Part shown: in pieces, positions 3,481 through 64,000 of the stretch
How the letters are laid out: each line of letters opens with the position of its first letter
Numbering within the stretch: the stretch's first letter is position 1
Origin: a virus
Length of the DNA: 64,000 nucleotides
Virus record (IMG/VR): IMGVR_UViG_3300029822_000001
Location: 1 to 64,000 of that record
Direction: 5' to 3' (one strand)
Position numbers and translations under genes: made by a program
Notes under the pieces: generated by a model
Told to the model about the DNA's origin: nothing
Databases searched by the model: none
Seen by the model: only the letters and a program-made list of their open reading frames with translations

Positions 3481-4845
3481 GAAAGTATGCAAGTAAGCAC
3501 GTTCTTTTAAAGACGTGATGAATTGCATTGGCTGTACATCTAGTTAAAAGTAGGGTATACTAAAAAATAGGAGGTGAATAAAATGACGTTAAAGGCTATA
3601 AAAACTAGAATATACCCTAATACTGAACAGCAGTACAAAATAGTTAACACGTTTGGTTGCTGTAGGTTTGTATGGAATCAGTTACTTGATATGCAGATTG
3701 AAAGATATCATAATGGGGGTAAGTTTGTTAATGAGTTTGGTATGAACTACCTGATTGTACAGTTGAAGAAAGAGTATCCCTTTCTTAAGAAAGTAGACTC
3801 AAGAAGTTTATTTCATGTTAGTCGTGACCTAAATAACGCTTTCCAGAAGTTATTTAAGGAACACTCAGGCCATCCTAAGTTTAAATCACGTAAGTTTCCT
3901 AAACAAAGTTATCAATCAAGTTGCATTAAAAATAATATTCGTCAAGTTAGCGAACACAGAATTAAGTTACCTAAGTTAGGTACTATTTACTTTAGGTCGG
4001 GACGTCAGCTTGAGGGTAAGATTAAGAATGTAACTATTAGGTTATCTTCTACTGGAAAGTTCTATGCTGTTGTTTTAATTGATACCGAAGTTAATAGGTT
4101 GGATAGTACTAATCACTCCGTAGGAATTGACATGGGTGTCGCTGATTTAATGATTACTAGTGATGGGGTTAAGTATCCAACCATTAGGTTTGATAAGATT
4201 TTAGCTAATAAGAAGCACTATTGGGAGAAACGGTTAGCTAGAAGACAAGCACAAGCACTTAAAGAGATTGCTTGTGACAAGCATAATAAAGTGATAGAAC
4301 TACGAGAGCTGTCTGACTTCAAGAATTACCTTAAAGCTAAACGTATGGTAGCTAAGTATAGTGAAAAGGTAGCTAATCAAAGAAGTAACTATTTACACAA
4401 CCTAACCAAGCAGTTAGTAGAGCAATATGATGTGATTAAAATAGAAGATTTGAAAACCAAAAATCTTCTTAAGAACCATAAACTTGCTCGGGCAATTTCT
4501 AACCAAGCTTGGCGAGAACTGCGTTCTCAGCTTGAGTACAAATGTGAATGGTACGGTAAACAGTTAGTCACTGTTAATCCTAGAAAAACCAGTCAAATTT
4601 GTAGTACATGTGGGTACGATGATGGTAAGCACACCTTAGATATTAGGCAGTGGACGTGCCCACAGTGTGGCACGCACCATGATAGAGATATTAACGCAGC
4701 AATAAATGTCTTAAAGGCGTAAACGACTAAACTGGGCCGGAACGGCCCTTAGTAAATAGCTGTAACCTCTACTTATTACTATTTAGGCAATAGGCAAGCA
4801 TGCAGTTTTCCTAGAAGCTTCTTACTTTAGTGACGAGTAGTTCAC
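3481..4845 (+). mobile_element. IS200/IS605-family tnpB-only (IS1341-like) element
   Basis: Left-end hairpin CACGTTCTTTTAAAGACGTG 3' of a TTGAC target (3476-3480); tnpB; right-end hairpin preceded by GAAG and ending in TTCAC (4841-4845). Confidence 0.85.
3574..4722 (+). CDS. tnpB: RNA-guided endonuclease TnpB (IS200/IS605 type)
   Basis: HTH N-terminus (RIYPN..Q), RuvC motifs VGIDMG / KIEDL / HDRDINAA, CxxC..CxxC zinc finger. Confidence 0.95.
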   Translation: MNKMTLKAIKTRIYPNTEQQYKIVNTFGCCRFVWNQLLDMQIERYHNGGKFVNEFGMNYLIVQLKKEYPFLKKVDSRSLFHVSRDLNNAFQKLFKEHSGHPKFKSRKFPKQSYQSSCIKNNIRQVSEHRIKLPKLGTIYFRSGRQLEGKIKNVTIRLSSTGKFYAVVLIDTEVNRLDSTNHSVGIDMGVADLMITSDGVKYPTIRFDKILANKKHYWEKRLARRQAQALKEIACDKHNKVIELRELSDFKNYLKAKRMVAKYSEKVANQRSNYLHNLTKQLVEQYDVIKIEDLKTKNLLKNHKLARAISNQAWRELRSQLEYKCEWYGKQLVTVNPRKTSQICSTCGYDDGKHTLDIRQWTCPQCGTHHDRDINAAINVLKA

Positions 4846-4865
4846 CACTTGGGAAAGAACAATGA
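4725..4865 (+). ncRNA. TnpB omega-RNA A (scaffold plus guide CACTTGGGAAAGAACAATGA)
   Basis: Conserved GGGCCGGAACGGCCC hairpin, TAAATAGCTGTAACC and right-end hairpin shared with five other copies; the 5' end may overlap tnpB. Confidence 0.85.
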
Positions 4866-5090: not shown

Positions 5091-5790
5091 CAATAAACAT
5101 TGGTCAAGCATGTGAAGATGGGGTAAGCACCCTGCATGTGGCACTTGGTATATAAGTCTTGAATACCTGTGACAAACGATAGTTTTATTAATATTTAGGG
5201 GAGAAAACTCGTTACTTCAGTGACGAGATGAATTCCTTATTATTCTAAATAAATCTCTATTGACAAATATAGGGATTATGGTATACTATAGTTGTTAACG
5301 AAAACCAAGTTAACTAATAAAAGTATATTAACTGGGCCGGAACGGCCCTTAGTAAATAGCTGTAACCTCTACTTATTACTATTTAGGCAATAGGCAAGTA
5401 TGCAGTTTTCCTAGAAGCTTCTTACTTTAGTGACGAGTAGTTCACACATGACTGAATAAGTTGGTTTAGGTAAGCAAAGTACAGTGAAAGCTGGGCCAAT
5501 GATACATATATTATGTTACCTTATGGCGAAAAATAAGCCGTAGTAGCCATGGAGCCGGATAGGCTTTTAGTGCAAACCAGGGATGTTTCAGGGGAGATAA
5601 CCTGACTGTTAGGTACTAACGACATATGAGGTACCGCTAATTGCACAATAGTTATATTAACTCTTCTGTACAAAGACTTAATATACTTGCGGTCGCTGTA
5701 CTATAGACGTATAGTATGTAACTCTTAAGGGTACCAAATTAGAGTATAAACAAGGGTACCCAGCGCTACATATTAGATATAGTATACTAA
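5091..5790 (+). ncRNA. Candidate large structured ncRNA interrupted by an omega-RNA cassette
   Basis: About 440 nt without a long ORF after removing 5189-5445; relatively GC-rich, many hairpins, ends at a terminator. Family not identified. Confidence 0.4.
5189..5445 (+). mobile_element. Non-autonomous IS200/IS605 derivative carrying only a promoter and omega-RNA B
   Basis: TTTAT target (5184-5188); left-end AAAA plus hairpin 19 nt inside; TTGACA(5260)-N16-TATACT; scaffold matches 4731-4845 except 1 nt; ends TTCAC. Confidence 0.9.
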
Positions 5791-7376: not shown

Positions 7377-8081
7377 ATGGTTATGGAAAAAGTCGTCGGT
7401 AAGTCTTTAGAAGAAATTGCAAGAGGGTCCCAAATTCTGGATACCCCTTATAACTCAACAATTGTTTACGAACTAGGTACCTTAATTAGAAATGAAATGT
7501 ACTCAGTACACAATGTATCAATTAGTACTAGCAATTCTAGTGGTACTGTATTAGATAAGGGAGAATCCTCCATTGCCTCATCTATTCAAGTAACTATTGA
7601 ACCTAGCAAGATTCGTACTTTTGTACAAGTTCGGGGAATTACTCAACCAGACTTTGTTGCTATGGTTGGTGATATTGTACATTCAGGGATGCTATTTTCA
7701 ACTGAAAATGTAACAATTGACCGGTACAATGTTTCTTCCTTGTACGATGAAGAGTTAACAATTAGTATTGACTTTGCTTATACCAAGGTAACTGACTTTG
7801 ATGGTGGCAAGGATGTATCTAAGAAGAATAGTGAAGTACTAAAGGGGCTTACAGACAAGGTAAACAATCTGTCTGACTTGGTACAAAAAATGGATACTGG
7901 ATTTGGCACAGAAGTGTCTAGCTTAAAGAAACGGGTTGATGCTTTAGATACCCCTAAGGAAGCACTGGACGTACCAGACGCACCAGCTGCAACAGATACC
8001 AAGACAGATGAACCAGCTGAAGTAGAAGGGGAAACATCTCCAGTAACTGAACCAACAGGGGAGACAAGTAGTAGTAACTGA
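7377..8081 (+). CDS. Hypothetical protein, N-terminal part of a gene split by the IS607-like element
   Basis: Joins in frame to 9520-10012 when 8072-9519 is removed. Confidence 0.7.
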   Translation: MVMEKVVGKSLEEIARGSQILDTPYNSTIVYELGTLIRNEMYSVHNVSISTSNSSGTVLDKGESSIASSIQVTIEPSKIRTFVQVRGITQPDFVAMVGDIVHSGMLFSTENVTIDRYNVSSLYDEELTISIDFAYTKVTDFDGGKDVSKKNSEVLKGLTDKVNNLSDLVQKMDTGFGTEVSSLKKRVDALDTPKEALDVPDAPAATDTKTDEPAEVEGETSPVTEPTGETSSSN

Positions 8082-9519
8082 TTATCTATAAAAGCTTGAC
8101 AGATTTTGTAAAATATTATATAATGTTGTTATGTTATATAGAAGGTTATAAAAATAAACATCGAGAAAATATAAAAACAAATTAGGTGGTGATGAGAATG
8201 TTAACCAGCTATAAAGTTGAAATTAACCCTACAAGTCAGCAAGCGTGGTTAATTGATAGACACATATCAGCTAGTCGTTGGGCATACAACTTGTTTTTAG
8301 ACATTAATAAACAACGCTATGAAGATGGCTATCACTACATGGGTGCATACAAGTTTAGCACGTGGTTTAACCATGACTATTTAGATTTTAACCCAGATGA
8401 TAATTGGATTAAGCAACTGTATGCAAAGTCCACAACGCAAGCTTTCATTGATGCTGACAATGCAATGAAAAGGTTCTTTAAAAAACAGAGTAGATACCCA
8501 CATTTTCGTTCATTTAAGTGCGGACAAGGGTCTTTCTACTTTGTTAAGAACAGCAAGAAGCAGATTATCAAAGTAGAACGTCATCGGATTAAGCTTCCTA
8601 AAATCGGTTGGATACGTTTAAAAGAAAAAGGATATATTCCAACCGATGCTGAACATTTTGTGATTAAACAAGGTCGTGTCAAGAAACATGCAGGTAGATA
8701 CTATCTAACATGCCTAGTAAAGCAAGCTGACATTCAGTTCGCTAAACTTAATGGCGACCCAATTGGAATTGATTTAGGCATTAAAGAATTTGCCATTTTA
8801 AGTAATGGAACTATATTTAGCAACAAAAATAAGAGCAGTCGAGTACGAGGGATGCGAAAACGACTTCGGCGACTGCAAAGAAAGTGGTCTCGTCAGTATC
8901 TTGCATTTAAAGCTAGAAAACAGAAAGAAGGGTCTTCTGCTACTGATTTAAATCTAGCCAAAACCGAGCTGAAAATGCAACGATTGTATCAACGTCTTCA
9001 AAACATACAAGCTGACTATCAGAAGAAGATTATTTCACGGGTGGTGAGAACCAAACCACAGTGGGTAGCTTTGGAAGATTTAAACATCGGTGGTCTGATT
9101 AAGAACAAGAATTTAGCTAAAGCGATTATGCAACAAGGACTTTACACGTTTAGAGAAAAGGTAATAAATAAGTGTCAACAACTTGGGATTCCAGTTCACC
9201 TGGCTAATCGGTTTGAACCCACCTCTAAGCGCTGTCATAATTGTGGAACTAGAAAAGTTAACTTGTCCCTAGCTGATAGAATCTATCATTGTGACGTTTG
9301 TGGTTATACTGAAGACAGAGATATCAATGCGTCTTTAAACATTAGAGATACTGAAAACTTTGAGCTTGCCTACTAAATAGGCTTCAAAGTATGTACCGAT
9401 GGCTAGTCGGGAATTTACGCTTGTGGACTGTTATATCAACTGTACTAGCGAGCTTTTAGCGAGGCAGGACAGGCTGAAACAAGAAAAATCTATAACTTTT
9501 TATAAGTTATCAGTAGCAG
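8072..9519 (+). mobile_element. IS607-family tnpB-only element
   Basis: AT-rich left end, tnpB, right end ...TTATCAGTAGCAG|G, AG at both junctions, imperfectly inverted ends; removal restores a reading frame. Confidence 0.75.
8186..9376 (+). CDS. tnpB: RNA-guided endonuclease TnpB (IS607 type)
   Basis: RuvC motifs IGIDLG / ALEDL / EDRDINAS, CHNC..CDVC zinc finger. Confidence 0.93.
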   Translation: MVMRMLTSYKVEINPTSQQAWLIDRHISASRWAYNLFLDINKQRYEDGYHYMGAYKFSTWFNHDYLDFNPDDNWIKQLYAKSTTQAFIDADNAMKRFFKKQSRYPHFRSFKCGQGSFYFVKNSKKQIIKVERHRIKLPKIGWIRLKEKGYIPTDAEHFVIKQGRVKKHAGRYYLTCLVKQADIQFAKLNGDPIGIDLGIKEFAILSNGTIFSNKNKSSRVRGMRKRLRRLQRKWSRQYLAFKARKQKEGSSATDLNLAKTELKMQRLYQRLQNIQADYQKKIISRVVRTKPQWVALEDLNIGGLIKNKNLAKAIMQQGLYTFREKVINKCQQLGIPVHLANRFEPTSKRCHNCGTRKVNLSLADRIYHCDVCGYTEDRDINASLNIRDTENFELAY

Positions 9520-10012: not shown

Positions 10013-10091
10013 TCAATAGTAGTCAGGTACAATAATTGTGCTTGGCTATTTACATACACTGGAAAGTATGATATAATGAAAACATAAGGAG

Positions 10092-11237
10092 GTGAAGATA
10101 ATGACTTTAAAAGGAATTAAATTACGCATTTACCCTAATCAAGAGCAACAGTTGAAGATTAAATTGAACTTTGGCTATAATCGTTTTGTTTGGAACCAAA
10201 TGTTAGGTATGATGATAAAGCGCTACGAGAATAATCCTAAAGCTAAGTTTCTAAACGTATTTGATTTAAATACTCTTTTACCTACTTTAAAGACTGAGTA
10301 TCCTTGGTTAAAGGATGGAATAGCTCAGTCTTATCAGCAGAGTATCAAGGATTTATCTTTAGCTTATAAAAAGTTCTTTAAGGAGCACGCAGGGTTCCCC
10401 AAGTTTAAGTCTCGGAAGTTTCCCAAGCAAAGCTTTAGGATACCCCAAAAGACTAGATTAGTAGATGACCAGTATATTAAATTTACTAAAATCGGTGTTG
10501 TTAGGTTTAAGTATGGTAGAGTAATTAGAGGAAAGATTAAAAACGCTACAATCAAAAAGTCTTTTACTGGTAAGTATTATGCCGTCTTACTAGTAGATAC
10601 CAATATTAAAAAACTACCTAAAACTAAACAGTCAGTTGGCATCGACATGGGAGTAGCAGATTTAATGATTACTAGTGATGGTATTAAGTATCCAACCATT
10701 CGCTTTGATAAGCTTCTTGCTAAAAATAAGCATTATTGGGAGAAACGGTTAGCTCGTAGAAGACCACAAGCTATGAAAGAAATCGCTTGGGACCATCACA
10801 ATAAAGTAATGGAGCCAAGAGAACTATCTGATTTTAAGAACTATCTTAAAGCCAAGTGTATGGTAGCTAAATATAGCGAAAAGATTGCTAATCAGCGTAG
10901 TAACTATCTTCATAATCTAACCAAGCAGTTAGTCGAGCAATACGATGTGATTAAAATTGAAGATTTGAAAACCAAAAATCTTCTTAAGAATCATAAGCTT
11001 GCTCGTGCAATTGCTAATCAAGCATGGCGAGAAATTAGAAGACAGCTGGAATACAAGTGTACCTGGTATGGGAAACAGTTGGTCACTGTGAACCCAAGGA
11101 AAACCAGTCAAATTTGCAGTAACTGCGGATTTGATGATGGTAAGCACACTTTGGATGTTCGCCAGTGGAAATGTCCTAAATGTGGTATGAACCACGACAG
11201 AGATATCAACGCTGCGAAAAACATCTTAGCTGCTTAA
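10092..11237 (+). CDS. tnpB: RNA-guided endonuclease TnpB (IS200/IS605 type)
   Basis: VGIDMG / KIEDL / HDRDINAA intact; C-terminal half nearly identical to 3574-4722. Confidence 0.95.
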   Translation: MKIMTLKGIKLRIYPNQEQQLKIKLNFGYNRFVWNQMLGMMIKRYENNPKAKFLNVFDLNTLLPTLKTEYPWLKDGIAQSYQQSIKDLSLAYKKFFKEHAGFPKFKSRKFPKQSFRIPQKTRLVDDQYIKFTKIGVVRFKYGRVIRGKIKNATIKKSFTGKYYAVLLVDTNIKKLPKTKQSVGIDMGVADLMITSDGIKYPTIRFDKLLAKNKHYWEKRLARRRPQAMKEIAWDHHNKVMEPRELSDFKNYLKAKCMVAKYSEKIANQRSNYLHNLTKQLVEQYDVIKIEDLKTKNLLKNHKLARAIANQAWREIRRQLEYKCTWYGKQLVTVNPRKTSQICSNCGFDDGKHTLDVRQWKCPKCGMNHDRDINAAKNILAA

Positions 11238-11239
11238 CA

Positions 11240-11386
11240 CAAATGACTAAATTGGGCTGGAACAGCCCTTAGTAAATAGCTGTAACCGCTATCTGACATT
11301 CAATGGATGCTAGACAAGTCAGCGGTGTTCCTAGAAACCTGTGGTTTTAACCATGGTGTAGTTCATTGTAAAATGCTACTTAGAAA
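11240..11386 (+). ncRNA. TnpB omega-RNA D (right end TTCAT 11362-11366; guide TGTAAAATGCTACTTAGAAA)
   Basis: GGGCTGGAACAGCCC hairpin, TAAATAGCTGTAACC, GAAA plus right-end hairpin plus TTCAT. Confidence 0.85.
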
Positions 11387-11453
11387 TTAAACGTGGAGAT
11401 GTTGTAAAATGAACTTAGAAATTAAACGTGGAGACATTGTAAAATGCTACTTA
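11366..11453 (+). repeat. About 36-bp tandem repeat (2.5 copies) spanning the omega-RNA guide and the mazF-like start
   Basis: Units start at 11366, 11402 and 11437. Confidence 0.9.
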
Positions 11454-11765
11454 CCTGGTGAAGGAACCAGTCATGTACAAAGTGGTTACCGTCCCGTAGT
11501 GGTTGTACAAAATAATACTGGAAATAAATTTTCTCCTAATACTATTGTGGTACCTTTAACCTCAGAGAACAAGAAGGACATGCCAACTCATAGTAAATTT
11601 GTTATTCATTATGCAGATAGAGAAGATGTTAATAACATTGCTTTGTGTGAAGCATTAACTACCATCCCAATTAGTTCAATTACCAGTAAGGTAGGACATG
11701 TTAATTATAGCAATATGCATAAAATTGAGCAGGCTATTAGAGTTAGTTTGGGGTTGAATGAATAA
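11409..11765 (+). CDS. PemK/MazF-family endoribonuclease toxin
   Basis: IKRGDIV, QSGYRPVVVVQNN.GN..SP..IVVPLTS motif. Confidence 0.9.
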   Translation: MNLEIKRGDIVKCYLPGEGTSHVQSGYRPVVVVQNNTGNKFSPNTIVVPLTSENKKDMPTHSKFVIHYADREDVNNIALCEALTTIPISSITSKVGHVNYSNMHKIEQAIRVSLGLNE

Positions 11766-13537
11766 TGATACTTAAAGTACATACCAATATAACTAGGGTA
11801 GAATTTGACAAGGAAGATGAACTTGAAGCAAAAAGTTTGGAATCCGTTATTCACAAAGGTATTGATGTACTAGACCCTAATAGGTACAATTCCTCAGCCT
11901 TTAGAATACACCATACTTGGGATGGTTATACTAAAATGTACAATTTCAAAGAACACTACTTTCCTAATGGATTGTATGATTTAGCAATCAATGCTTTAAA
12001 AAGCTATCAAAGGAATCATGAGGTATCTTTACGTATTGAGGACCATCGACAGGTACCTATTATTGAACCCTATGAGGCTATTCCTGATGTTCAAAAGGTA
12101 ACCCTTGGTGATAAGACTATTACTCCTAGAGAAGACCAGATTAAGGCTGTTAGGGCAGCATTTGACCAGCAGCGAGGGTTAATTGATAGTGCTACTAACT
12201 CAGGTAAGACTTTAATTGCTTCCTTGATACTTAAATATGCCAACTCCGATGGTAAATTCCTTTTTATTGCCCCTTCGGCTAATGTTATGAATCAGGCAAA
12301 GAAGACTTTTGAAGCTATCACTGGTGAAGAAGTAGGTACTTGGCAGGGAGACCATATAGACATTAAGAGAATAACTTGTGTCATGGCTAAAACCCTTGCT
12401 AACCGATTAAAGGACCCTTCTGCAGGAATAAAGCTAACAGGTAAGCAGGATATTGAGAATAAGCAGATAGCAACTAACTATACTCCTTTGTTTAAGAATG
12501 TACCTAACACACGGCAAGCAGTTTTAAACTACTTTTCTCACTACATTCCAAAGCACAAATATGAGCATGACCAGATTAAAATGATATGTCGGTTTGCTAA
12601 AGAGTGCAATAGCGACCTCAGTATGCAGGCTTATCTTAACCAATTTGATAAGGATTATCATAAGGCTTTATACAAACATGGTAAAAAGAAGTATGACCAA
12701 TACTATTTTGCTAGAGACTATCTGAAAACTGTTACAATAACTATTGTTGATGAGTGTCATAAGGCAGCTTCAGAGGGTTACCAGTCTATATTTAGACACC
12801 TAGATAATTCTCAAATGATGATTGGATTAAGTGGTTCCATTCGTCCTGAACAAGTAACTAGATATCACATGATTAAAGCCTACTTGGGGGTACCTATCAC
12901 TAAGATTCGTAATTATCTCATGATTGAAGAAGGGGTCAGTGCTACTCCTCATATCAAGGAGCTATCTATTAGTGAGCCTAAAGACCTAGATAAATTAGTT
13001 CAACCGGAACTAAGTCAAGGAAAAGCAACGCCACTAAGACAGTATCAATTAGAGTACAAGTATGGTGTTATTGAAAATGACTATCGTAATCGTAAGATTG
13101 CTGAACTAGCTAAAATGTGCTATAACCTAGATAAAGGTGCTTGCCTAATAGTTGTTAATTCAATTGAACATGGGGAACATATTGGTGATATGTTGGAAGA
13201 ACTGGAGGTACCTTATACCTTTCTCAAGGGTAGCGATGATACAGAAACACGTCAAAAAACTTTAGATGCTACTAAAGATGGTACTTTAAGGGTACTATTA
13301 GCGACTAAGATTATTGATGAAGGACTAGATACCCCTAACTTGCAATTTTTGATTTATGCTTCAGCAGGCTCATCACCTATTCAACTGTTACAACGAATTG
13401 GACGTATCCTTCGGCTAGGTAAGAACAAAAAAGATGTTTTTGTTTATGATATTGTTGACAAAACTAGTAAATTCTTGTACAATCAAGCTAAATCTCGTCA
13501 TAAGATATATGTAGAGGAGAAATTTGATATCATTTGA
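11765..13537 (+). CDS. Superfamily 2 DNA helicase
   Basis: ATNSGKT, IVDECH, GLSGS, IIDEGLD, QRIGRILR. Confidence 0.92.
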   Translation: MILKVHTNITRVEFDKEDELEAKSLESVIHKGIDVLDPNRYNSSAFRIHHTWDGYTKMYNFKEHYFPNGLYDLAINALKSYQRNHEVSLRIEDHRQVPIIEPYEAIPDVQKVTLGDKTITPREDQIKAVRAAFDQQRGLIDSATNSGKTLIASLILKYANSDGKFLFIAPSANVMNQAKKTFEAITGEEVGTWQGDHIDIKRITCVMAKTLANRLKDPSAGIKLTGKQDIENKQIATNYTPLFKNVPNTRQAVLNYFSHYIPKHKYEHDQIKMICRFAKECNSDLSMQAYLNQFDKDYHKALYKHGKKKYDQYYFARDYLKTVTITIVDECHKAASEGYQSIFRHLDNSQMMIGLSGSIRPEQVTRYHMIKAYLGVPITKIRNYLMIEEGVSATPHIKELSISEPKDLDKLVQPELSQGKATPLRQYQLEYKYGVIENDYRNRKIAELAKMCYNLDKGACLIVVNSIEHGEHIGDMLEELEVPYTFLKGSDDTETRQKTLDATKDGTLRVLLATKIIDEGLDTPNLQFLIYASAGSSPIQLLQRIGRILRLGKNKKDVFVYDIVDKTSKFLYNQAKSRHKIYVEEKFDII

Positions 13538-13581
13538 TATACTTTCTTTTGAAACATTGCCCGATGTACTCATAAAGAAGC

Positions 13582-13786
13582 TTGACAAATAAATAATATA
13601 TGATATACTATAATTGTTAGCGAAAACCAAGCTAATAAATAAAAAATTATCTAGGTTCGGAACGAACCGTGGTAAATAGCTGTAACCTCTGCATATAGTG
13701 CTAGACACTATTGTGTAAGTATGCAGTGTTCCCAGAAGCTCGGTCATTCATGACCGAGTAGTTCACATCATGAAATAAAAATTTCA
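13582..13786 (+). ncRNA. Stand-alone omega-RNA cassette E (promoter, scaffold, guide ATCATGAAATAAAAATTTCA)
   Basis: TTGACA(13582)-N16-TATACT, GAAAACCAA leader hairpin, scaffold, right end TTCAC at 13762-13766; no tnpB and no left-end hairpin seen. Confidence 0.85.
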
Positions 13787-63851: not shown

Positions 63852-64000
63852 CCTTTCTATGGCTTAATCACGTGAACTACTCGGTCATGAAGGACCAAGC
63901 TTCTGGGAACACTGCTTACTTACACAGTAGTGTCTAGCACTCCATGCAGAGGTTACAGCTATTTACCACGGCTCGTTCCGAACCTAGTTAGTCAATTATT
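63852..64000 (-). ncRNA. Omega-RNA G / IS605-type right end (element continues beyond the window)
   Basis: Scaffold closely similar to cassette E; TTCAC at 63876-63872; guide GTGATTAAGCCATAGAAAGG. Confidence 0.85.

Follow-up and report, generated by a model that had tools for sequence, protein, structure and literature searches.

A perfect match between the guide of a truncated tnpB-omegaRNA cassette and a neighboring phage mazF gene is probably a rearrangement scar

We analyzed a window made up of the leading 64 kb of a virus record of 122,967 bp (IMG/VR IMGVR_UViG_3300029822_000001; estimated completeness 87%), in which a tnpB-omegaRNA cassette of the IS200/IS605 family of insertion sequences (ISs), here called cassette D, lies directly upstream of a gene for a MazF-type toxin. 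The guide of omegaRNA-D matches a stretch inside this mazF perfectly, and we consider it probable that the match is the scar of a rearrangement that rebuilt the mazF translation start behind a stranded cassette, leaving a guide that is inert on its own genome. The closest named relative of the record is Lactobacillus (brevis) phage 3-521 (Herelleviridae, genus Watanabevirus), with which it shares ~92-94% identity and a common gene order across most of the genome. In the literature searched, we found no description of a TnpB guide matching a toxin gene or of TnpB cassettes in Lactobacillus phages.

The guide starts at 11367, a position set by aligning sister elements, whose ends all read ...GTAGTTCA followed by C or T. 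Its 16 nucleotides (nt), TGTAAAATGCTACTTA, occur exactly twice in the window, after the tnpB-D right end (11367-11382) and inside mazF (11438-11453); full identity spans 19 nt (11364-11382 and 11435-11453), and GACAT (11433-11437) lies directly 5' of the site in mazF. With up to 2 mismatches allowed, shuffled sequences give an expected 0.15 matches, with at least 2 in 1 of 100 shuffles, and neither the window nor the 123-kb genome holds a further match at that threshold. The first 9 nt of the guide, TGTAAAATG, recur at 11403-11411, spanning the mazF ATG (11409) and preceded by GATGT (11398-11402). Both repeats belong to an array that Tandem Repeats Finder places at 11364-11453 (period 35, units of 35 and 36 nt, 2.5 copies, 85% matches). 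The 42 nt separating the right end from the mazF ATG are a mosaic of mazF sequence, with nt 30-45 first and then a copy of nt 10-35, and each joint falls on a microhomology or shared motif: the first on ACTTA, native to mazF codons 2-3 and 14-15, the second on (T)AAAATG, native to the start codon and to codons 11-13. Within copy 1, GGAG (11395-11398) stands 10 nt 5' of the ATG as the ribosome-binding site (RBS). Guide and mazF mRNA are of the same sense, which excludes antisense action.

A preliminary description of this DNA, made from the letters alone, had reported the perfect match after GACAT, the shorter match across the start codon and a 36-bp tandem duplication supplying the GGAG RBS, and its coordinates and motifs proved correct. 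It had also remarked that no MazE-like open reading frame (ORF) is adjacent and that tnpB-D has no visible left end. Both remarks hold: the 161-amino-acid (aa) ORF upstream of cassette D has no Pfam match, the MazE domain PF04014 has no match anywhere in the record (other antitoxin folds were not searched), and only a short left-end remnant is kept (see below). Besides the repeat-core difference, array copies 1 and 2 differ only by two adjacent transitions (GATGT versus GACAT), which may reflect chance or the derivation of copy 1 from another mazF allele, one encoding Asp-Val instead of Asp-Ile.

Comparison with IS-less relatives defines what cassette and array replaced. At the 3-521 locus, the upstream gene is shared with our phage; a terminator-like hairpin, a promoter (TTTACA-17-TATACT) and an RBS come next, then a mazF of 118 aa that overlaps the helicase gene, and no IS is present. 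A contig from a fermentation metagenome, L013, has the same IS-less layout, with a TTTACA-17-TATAAT promoter, an RBS and a 118-aa mazF. Sequence homologous to 3-521 breaks off at 10056 and begins again at 11407, and homology to L054, a relative of the cassette with a full left end, starts at 10055. Cassette D and the array together replace 54 nt of 3-521, including the mazF -10 box and RBS; the replaced stretch runs from just 3' of the -35 box to 2 nt before the ATG, and in its place stand a hairpin-less cassette and 42 nt of mazF pieces. The L013 mazF reads GGAGACAT and then the exact 16-nt guide sequence. Because L013 is IS-less and nevertheless has both GACAT and the target, both are ancestral and not an adaptation to the cassette. 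The 3-521 allele has a GATAT flank and 2 mismatches in the 16 guide nt, at positions 4 and 10; the possibility that GAC, in place of the GAT of 3-521, is an escape mutation in a target-adjacent motif (TAM) is ruled out, since the IS-less L013 already reads GACAT. In L013, TTTACATA is followed directly by TGTAAAA, which amounts to the left flank of cassette D run together with the 7 nt that open its right flank. Beyond those 7 nt, the right flank of D tracks the TGTAAAA copy internal to mazF, which points to TGTAAAA as a further candidate recombination point. The empty site itself reads TTTAC and then ATATGTAAAAGTATG in L013, and the guide shares only TGTAAAA with it, at an offset of 3 nt, so that guide and empty site do not match.

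In its protein and right end, cassette D resembles the IS200/IS605 TnpB-omegaRNA elements of the ISDra2 type (PDB 8bf8, 8exa, 8h1j), with the same HTH, OrfB and TNB domains, the same D-E-D triad, a right end that forms the omegaRNA scaffold and a guide made of the first ~16 nt of the flank. TnpB-D carries the Pfam domains HTH_OrfB_IS605, OrfB_IS605 and Cas12f1-like_TNB. Its residues 4-375 align to ISDra2 TnpB (8bf8; E 2e-57), its GIDMG, IEDL and HDRDINAA motifs align to the catalytic D, E and D of the RuvC domain, and both CxxC pairs of the zinc finger are kept (CSNCG and CPKCG); from this alignment, the protein looks catalytically intact. Unlike those elements, D resides in a phage record without tnpA, its left-end hairpin is deleted, its -10 box is fused to a phage -35 box and its guide matches a duplicated piece of a neighboring gene, not a TAM-adjacent empty site. 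The Y1 transposase domain (PF01797) has 0 matches in the whole 123-kb record, and relatives that bear tnpA and full ends are found in Lactobacillaceae genomes and in phage Lbab1, so transposition would require a TnpA from the host or from a co-infecting element.

The full left end of L054 extends ~65 nt further than that of D and includes the hairpin CTTGTTACTTTAGTGACGAG; the left end of D is reduced to the ~45 nt next to the tnpB ATG. The cassette is bordered by a TAM-like TTTAC (10049-10053), but the subterminal hairpin that should lie next to it is missing, and on this comparison D no longer has the left-end portion on which a TnpA would depend. At the other end, the conserved scaffold adjoins the guide as ...GTGTTCCTAGAA-hairpin-(T)GTAGTTCA plus C or T. 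Right ends read ...GAGTAGTTCAC in the six sister ends of this genome and in 16 of 17 bacterial relatives, and D ends in TGTAGTTCAT. The terminal hairpin, which is also predicted in the omegaRNA-D fold, and the TTCAT end of D are common to the viral loci L054, L055 and L064, the hairpin stem showing compensatory changes; L059 likewise ends in TTCAT, and, judged by these alignments, the right end of D is canonical for a subfamily comprising L054, L055 and L064. Damage to this end, with the last base lost in an illegitimate joining (TTCAT against TTCAC in the sisters), is ruled out by the TTCAT of L054, L055, L059 and L064.

The promoter now in front of tnpB-D scores 11 of 12 consensus matches with a 17-nt spacer. 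Between 9900 and 11900, 0 terminators are predicted, and two weaker promoter-like sites (11347-11374 and 11381-11410) score 9 of 12 each. The ATG of the helicase gene overlaps the mazF stop, which places the helicase in the mazF transcription unit, and both genes are most likely transcribed by read-through from the tnpB promoter.

These observations suggest a history in which the cassette would have landed at the TAM-like TTTAC of the mazF -35 box, after which at least two or three steps of microhomology-mediated recombination or slippage would have removed the native -10 box and RBS. Translation initiation could have been rebuilt by borrowing GGAG from mazF codons 7-8 and keeping the ATG, at the cost of swapping the original homing guide for 16 nt of mazF. 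mazF and the helicase gene would now be read through from the strong hybrid tnpB promoter, via the omegaRNA, and the solitary phage MazF "growth inhibitor" would need no TnpB, as in relatives. A simple insertion of the IS into mazF after GACAT was considered and rejected: the left flank is promoter DNA and not mazF nt 1-29, and GACAT is unlike the flanks in the clade. The preliminary description had offered repair of the mazF 5' end after IS insertion as its simpler alternative; the comparative data favor the repair, but not a plain insertion into mazF, the left junction being in the mazF promoter. The comparison with relatives lacking the IS that it proposed shows the promoter, RBS and solitary mazF of 3-521 and L013 and the ancestral GACAT and target of the latter, and its suggestion that self-cleavage is avoided for want of a TAM is favored by the flanks described next.

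We inferred the TAM of TnpB-D from the flanks of relatives. By its N-terminal 130 residues, TnpB-D groups with L014, L015, L016, L025, L030 and L035 (56-69% identity), cassettes A and X and their relatives being at 45-55%; all of D's group except L035 have what we term a type-2 left end. Type-2 left ends that pass a strict hairpin filter have TTTAT or TCTAT in 8 of 8 distinct cases, ending 18-22 nt before the hairpin. By eye, the left flanks in the D subfamily read TCTAC (L054), CTTAT (L055) and TTTAC (L064), next to D's own TTTAC, and that of the phage Lbab1 element reads TCTAT. Type-1 left ends have TTTTTG in 6 of 7 cases, and cassette Y, the only insertion of the family that is exact relative to 3-521, is flanked by TTTAA. 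GACAT matches none of these left-end flanks. The right ends TTCAC and TTCAT, which abut the guide and must therefore be immune to cutting, differ from TTTAY solely by C at -3, and GACAT likewise has C at -3. The resident GACAT site is thus most likely neither bound nor cut by TnpB-D, as far as flanks can tell.

The arrangement is also present in other samples. We compared assembled contigs from other samples (X2, X3, X5 and X15) over the stretch and found the cassette-mazF junction without indels in contigs from two other studies: a 2,976-nt contig of X2, with 15 differences over 10967-12300, and a 977-nt contig of X3, with 33 differences over 10949-11925. No joint removing the cassette appears in X2, X3, X5 or X15; the sole joint seen, from 11185 to 11253 in one X5 contig, concerns another tnpB copy. 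Gaps in coverage by the RNA run X15 carried no weight, nor did runs with small shares as a guide to habitat.

Several points weigh against the rearrangement scar. The TAM of TnpB-D is derived from relatives' flanks, and another TAM may apply: the TAM-reading helix (ISDra2 positions K76-Q80), aligned by hand, is DGIAQSYQQSIKDL in D and AESTSLQATNHDL in the clade, and of the seven ISDra2 TAM-contact residues D keeps only the equivalent of Q80, which reads the A at -2, the others differing or falling in gaps. Three further features could reflect function: the mazF fragment kept as guide measures exactly 16 nt, a length with which ISDra2 TnpB works; the tnpB-D ORF is intact; and the arrangement is kept in a ~3% diverged relative (X3). 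The history requires several events, no unique order could be reconstructed, and no intermediate was found in the viral and metagenome contigs searched: two degenerate junction patterns gave 0 matches in viral contigs, and the metagenome scan gave 1 match, L013 itself. Nor does the scar account for the GACAT-to-GATGT substitutions in copy 1. The flanks of viral TnpB loci show no homology to this genome or to 3-521 and hence yield no extra empty sites, and a MazF protein scan of viral contigs returned 7 loci, all at no more than 46% identity.

One alternative takes up the idea of the preliminary description that TnpB could repress or edit the toxin gene: TnpB-D and omegaRNA-D would bind mazF codons 10-15 as a roadblock or editor and so make up for the missing antitoxin, along the lines of TldR or CreTA. 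The perfect 16-nt match 71 nt downstream and the failure to find MazE speak for it, as do D's atypical TAM-reading residues and the persistence of the arrangement in other samples, and a TnpB with short guide pairing can bind without cutting, as ISDge10 does with a 10-nt guide in human cells (PMC13507860). TnpB-D, though, keeps D-E-D and the zinc finger, and a 16-nt guide is enough for ISDra2 TnpB to cut a 16-nt target (PMC10097598), so that an intact TnpB with a permissive TAM would cut its own phage. GACAT resembles none of the left-end flanks seen, the target lies in coding sequence and not in a promoter, with the guide in mRNA sense, a virulent phage has no need to spare its host, and the tandem array fully accounts for the match. 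IS-less relatives keep the same solitary mazF: 3-521 and L013 have it without tnpB, which makes mazF independent of TnpB there and an antitoxin role unnecessary. TldR proteins are nuclease-dead TnpB-like repressors with decayed RuvC sites or truncated C-termini; they act on promoter sites next to a cognate TAM (for fliC, GTTAT), and in the copy that the phage itself has, TAM and seed are mutated (PMC10705468). Like them, D is a TnpB relative that sits beside a non-transposon gene in a phage and whose guide corresponds to a particular gene region, but it has an intact nuclease triad and its full length of 378 aa, its site is in coding sequence with a flank that does not resemble the TAM derived above, and its resident copy is unmutated.

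CreTA combines Cascade, creA (an RNA resembling a CRISPR repeat) and a small RNA toxin whose promoter is the target, and the likeness to D lies in the idea of a guide RNA that restrains a toxin through partial complementarity; no Cascade, creA RNA or small RNA toxin was seen here, CRISPR-Cas having been looked for by an Rfam gathering scan of the window, which turned up 4 tRNAs and RAGATH-18 only. We regard such control of mazF as extremely improbable, and the claim that TnpB represses or edits the gene finds no support. Quite unlikely, too, is a homing or anti-competitor guide, with which the cassette would cut mazF in co-infecting IS-less phages and be copied in by repair, much as free-standing phage homing endonucleases do in intronless homing (PMC13565253), where a nuclease cassette likewise lies between conserved phage genes with part of a neighboring gene duplicated. 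L013 offers a perfect 16-nt target, and sister cassette X and viral locus L059 fit the idea, each lacking a left end and having a gene end directly repeated around it (74 nt and ~125 nt); the guide of X equals the IS-less 3-521 allele, from which the resident copy is set apart by its flank and by 2 of the 16 guide positions. In D, by contrast, the resident copy is not recoded and is identical to the rival L013 allele over GACAT and the 16 nt, so the self/non-self difference needed for homing is missing, and activity on rivals would strike D's own phage. GACAT is moreover not TAM-like, 3-521 has GATAT and 2 guide mismatches, and the TAM-adjacent empty site of L013 (TTTAC, then ATATGTAAAAG...) no longer matches the guide. 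Coupling in cis at the RNA level, in which mazF mRNA is the 3' continuation of the tnpB-omegaRNA transcript and the amount of MazF is set by TnpB binding, by omegaRNA processing or by AGUUCAUU-AAUGAACU pairing between the right end and the start region, seems unlikely as well, though less so than either of these. The native -10 box and RBS have been replaced, no terminator is predicted between tnpB and mazF, and TnpB is reported to process its own transcript into omegaRNA (PMC10278001). An RNA-library contig from X15 covers 11355-11619, but strand and transcript ends cannot be read from contigs, and DNA may have been carried over. The right end AGTTCATT (11360-11367) is the reverse complement of AATGAACT (11407-11414, across the mazF start), and the minimum-energy fold pairs these 8 nt; however, shuffled versions of 11238-11425 fold just as well (z -0.89), an 8-nt pairing arises by chance occasionally in AT-rich sequence, there are the two weak promoter-like sites given above, and nothing points to regulation beyond plain read-through. 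That TnpB-D and omegaRNA-D have been kept for cis action on mazF, whether through a relaxed-TAM, non-cutting R-loop at codons 10-15 or through omegaRNA maturation on the shared transcript that sets MazF translation, strikes us as very improbable; if true, an intact nuclease would have given rise to a natural "antitoxin" for a solitary phage toxin, one that is RNA-guided or acts through guide-RNA processing.

If the guide match is instead a rearrangement scar, the locus would be a worked case of a virulent phage tolerating an RNA-guided nuclease cassette in a promoter, in which the cassette promoter takes over an operon, a short coding duplication is reused as an RBS, and the cassette forfeits its mobility, with the left end, and its homing guide. 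A perfect match between a guide and a neighboring gene can come from repair alone, and a cognate TAM and a self/non-self difference are needed before it is called targeting. The features of the locus are collected in Table 1.

Table 1. Features of the cassette D-mazF locus (window coordinates)
Feature	Position	Strand	Remarks
Hybrid tnpB-D promoter	10049..10077	+	-35 TTTACA from the phage, formerly the mazF -35; TG-extended -10 TATAAT from the cassette
IS200/IS605-family tnpB-omegaRNA cassette D, left end truncated, no left-end hairpin	10055..11366	+	Limits from homology to 3-521 and L054
tnpB-D coding sequence, 378 aa from ATG	10101..11237	+	ORF opens at GTG 10092; Pfam matches
omegaRNA-D scaffold, non-coding 3' part	11238..11366	+	Ends TGTAGTTCAT; aligns with six sister right ends
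Guide of omegaRNA-D	11367..11382	+	First 16 nt past the right end; identical to mazF nt 30-45
Repeat copy 1, 36 nt	11367..11402	+	mazF nt 30-45 and copy of nt 10-29; new GGAG RBS; joint at ACTTA
Repeat copy 2, 35 nt	11403..11437	+	TGTAAA, mazF start codon (11409), codons 1-10; GACAT at end
mazF / PemK-like endoribonuclease gene, 118 aa, intact	11409..11765	+	Pfam PF02452, 3e-20, positions 1-108 of 109
Partial copy 3, resident "target" in mazF	11438..11453	+	Codons 10-15; GACAT 5' (11433-11437); same site in IS-less L013
DNA helicase gene	11765..13537	+	ATG overlaps mazF stop; same order in 3-521

The MazF protein matches B. subtilis YdcE/EndoA (1ne8, 4mdx) end to end (E 7e-16). Of a type II mazEF module, the locus has the MazF/PemK toxin and no adjacent MazE-type antitoxin, and none is annotated at the mazF locus of 3-521 either. 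Solitary MazF-like genes of lytic Lactobacillus phages are the closest known counterpart: 3-521 gp142 is 97% identical in protein and has the same neighbors, a hypothetical gene upstream and the overlapping helicase downstream. Only the leader differs, 3-521 and L013 having their own promoter and RBS where this phage has the cassette and repeat array. Relatives of MazF occur in 85 phage records, 31 of them from Lactobacillus, and most are annotated as a solitary "MazF-like growth inhibitor." The best protein match, P0001, represents a cluster of 43 member sequences, and its N-terminal extension reads through an IS-less leader.

Elsewhere in the record, there are seven matches to the TnpB TNB domain, one with an internal TGA, and seven omegaRNA right ends of one family, four of them 3' of a tnpB (A, D, X and Y) and three in protein-free mini-elements. 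Guide matches in cis are rare: 2 of the 7 ends in this genome (D and X) and 1 of 36 ends in relatives' loci (L059; some viral rows duplicate one element) have one, and no bacterial end (of 17) does. Cassette X (G000 97452-98846, minus strand), which lies beyond the window, also lacks the left-end hairpin and has 15 nt more left end than D. On either side lies a direct repeat, 74 nt long, of the 3' end and terminator of the 3-521 gp108 homologue. The copy at its right end, compared by eye with 3-521 over 76 nt, has ~8 differences, all in the terminator part, and an identical guide; the resident functional copy differs just 5' of the site (TTCTGT versus TTTTGT) and at 2 of 16 guide positions. 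From its layout, cassette X looks like a homing cassette with a resistant patch. In L059, an IMG/VR contig, positions 1337-1460 and 2769-2890 form a ~125-nt repeat, 78% identical, of the 3' end and terminator of a LysM-repeat gene, and the cassette has no left end and a TTCAT right end. X and L059 would fit a logic of cutting the rival and carrying a resistant copy; D does not share it, the rival allele being the same as its resident copy. Cassettes such as X and L059 suggest that TnpB cassettes lacking a transposase recur in large phages.

Cassette A (window 3481-4846) replaces 126 nt of 3-521, comprising a TTGACA promoter and ~the first 100 nt of the gp137 homologue, so that this gene is 5'-truncated here; its left junction also falls in a -35 box (TTGAC). 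The protein-free omegaRNA mini-elements lie at window positions 5188-5445, 13534-13780 and 63872-64000, the last continuing to 64123 of the genome, and each has a left-end hairpin, an internal promoter and a right end. Those at 5188-5445 and 13534-13780 replace 389 nt and 528 nt of 3-521, the 528 nt including the gp144 homologue, and that at 63872-64123 shows a 2-nt ambiguous joint relative to 3-521, or 5 extra nt if the TAM is GTTAT. A different TnpB (8186-9376) is encoded within 8063-9519, followed by an Rfam RAGATH-18 match (9420-9485, 52.1 bits); relative to 3-521, this element is an insertion to within ~1 nt, just upstream of the gene preceding cassette D. tnpB-Y (G000 120789-120989, minus strand) has an in-frame TGA and more stops in alignment and is probably a pseudogene, although its omegaRNA end is intact. 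To the left of Y lies a second, degenerate left-end remnant, a nested insertion.

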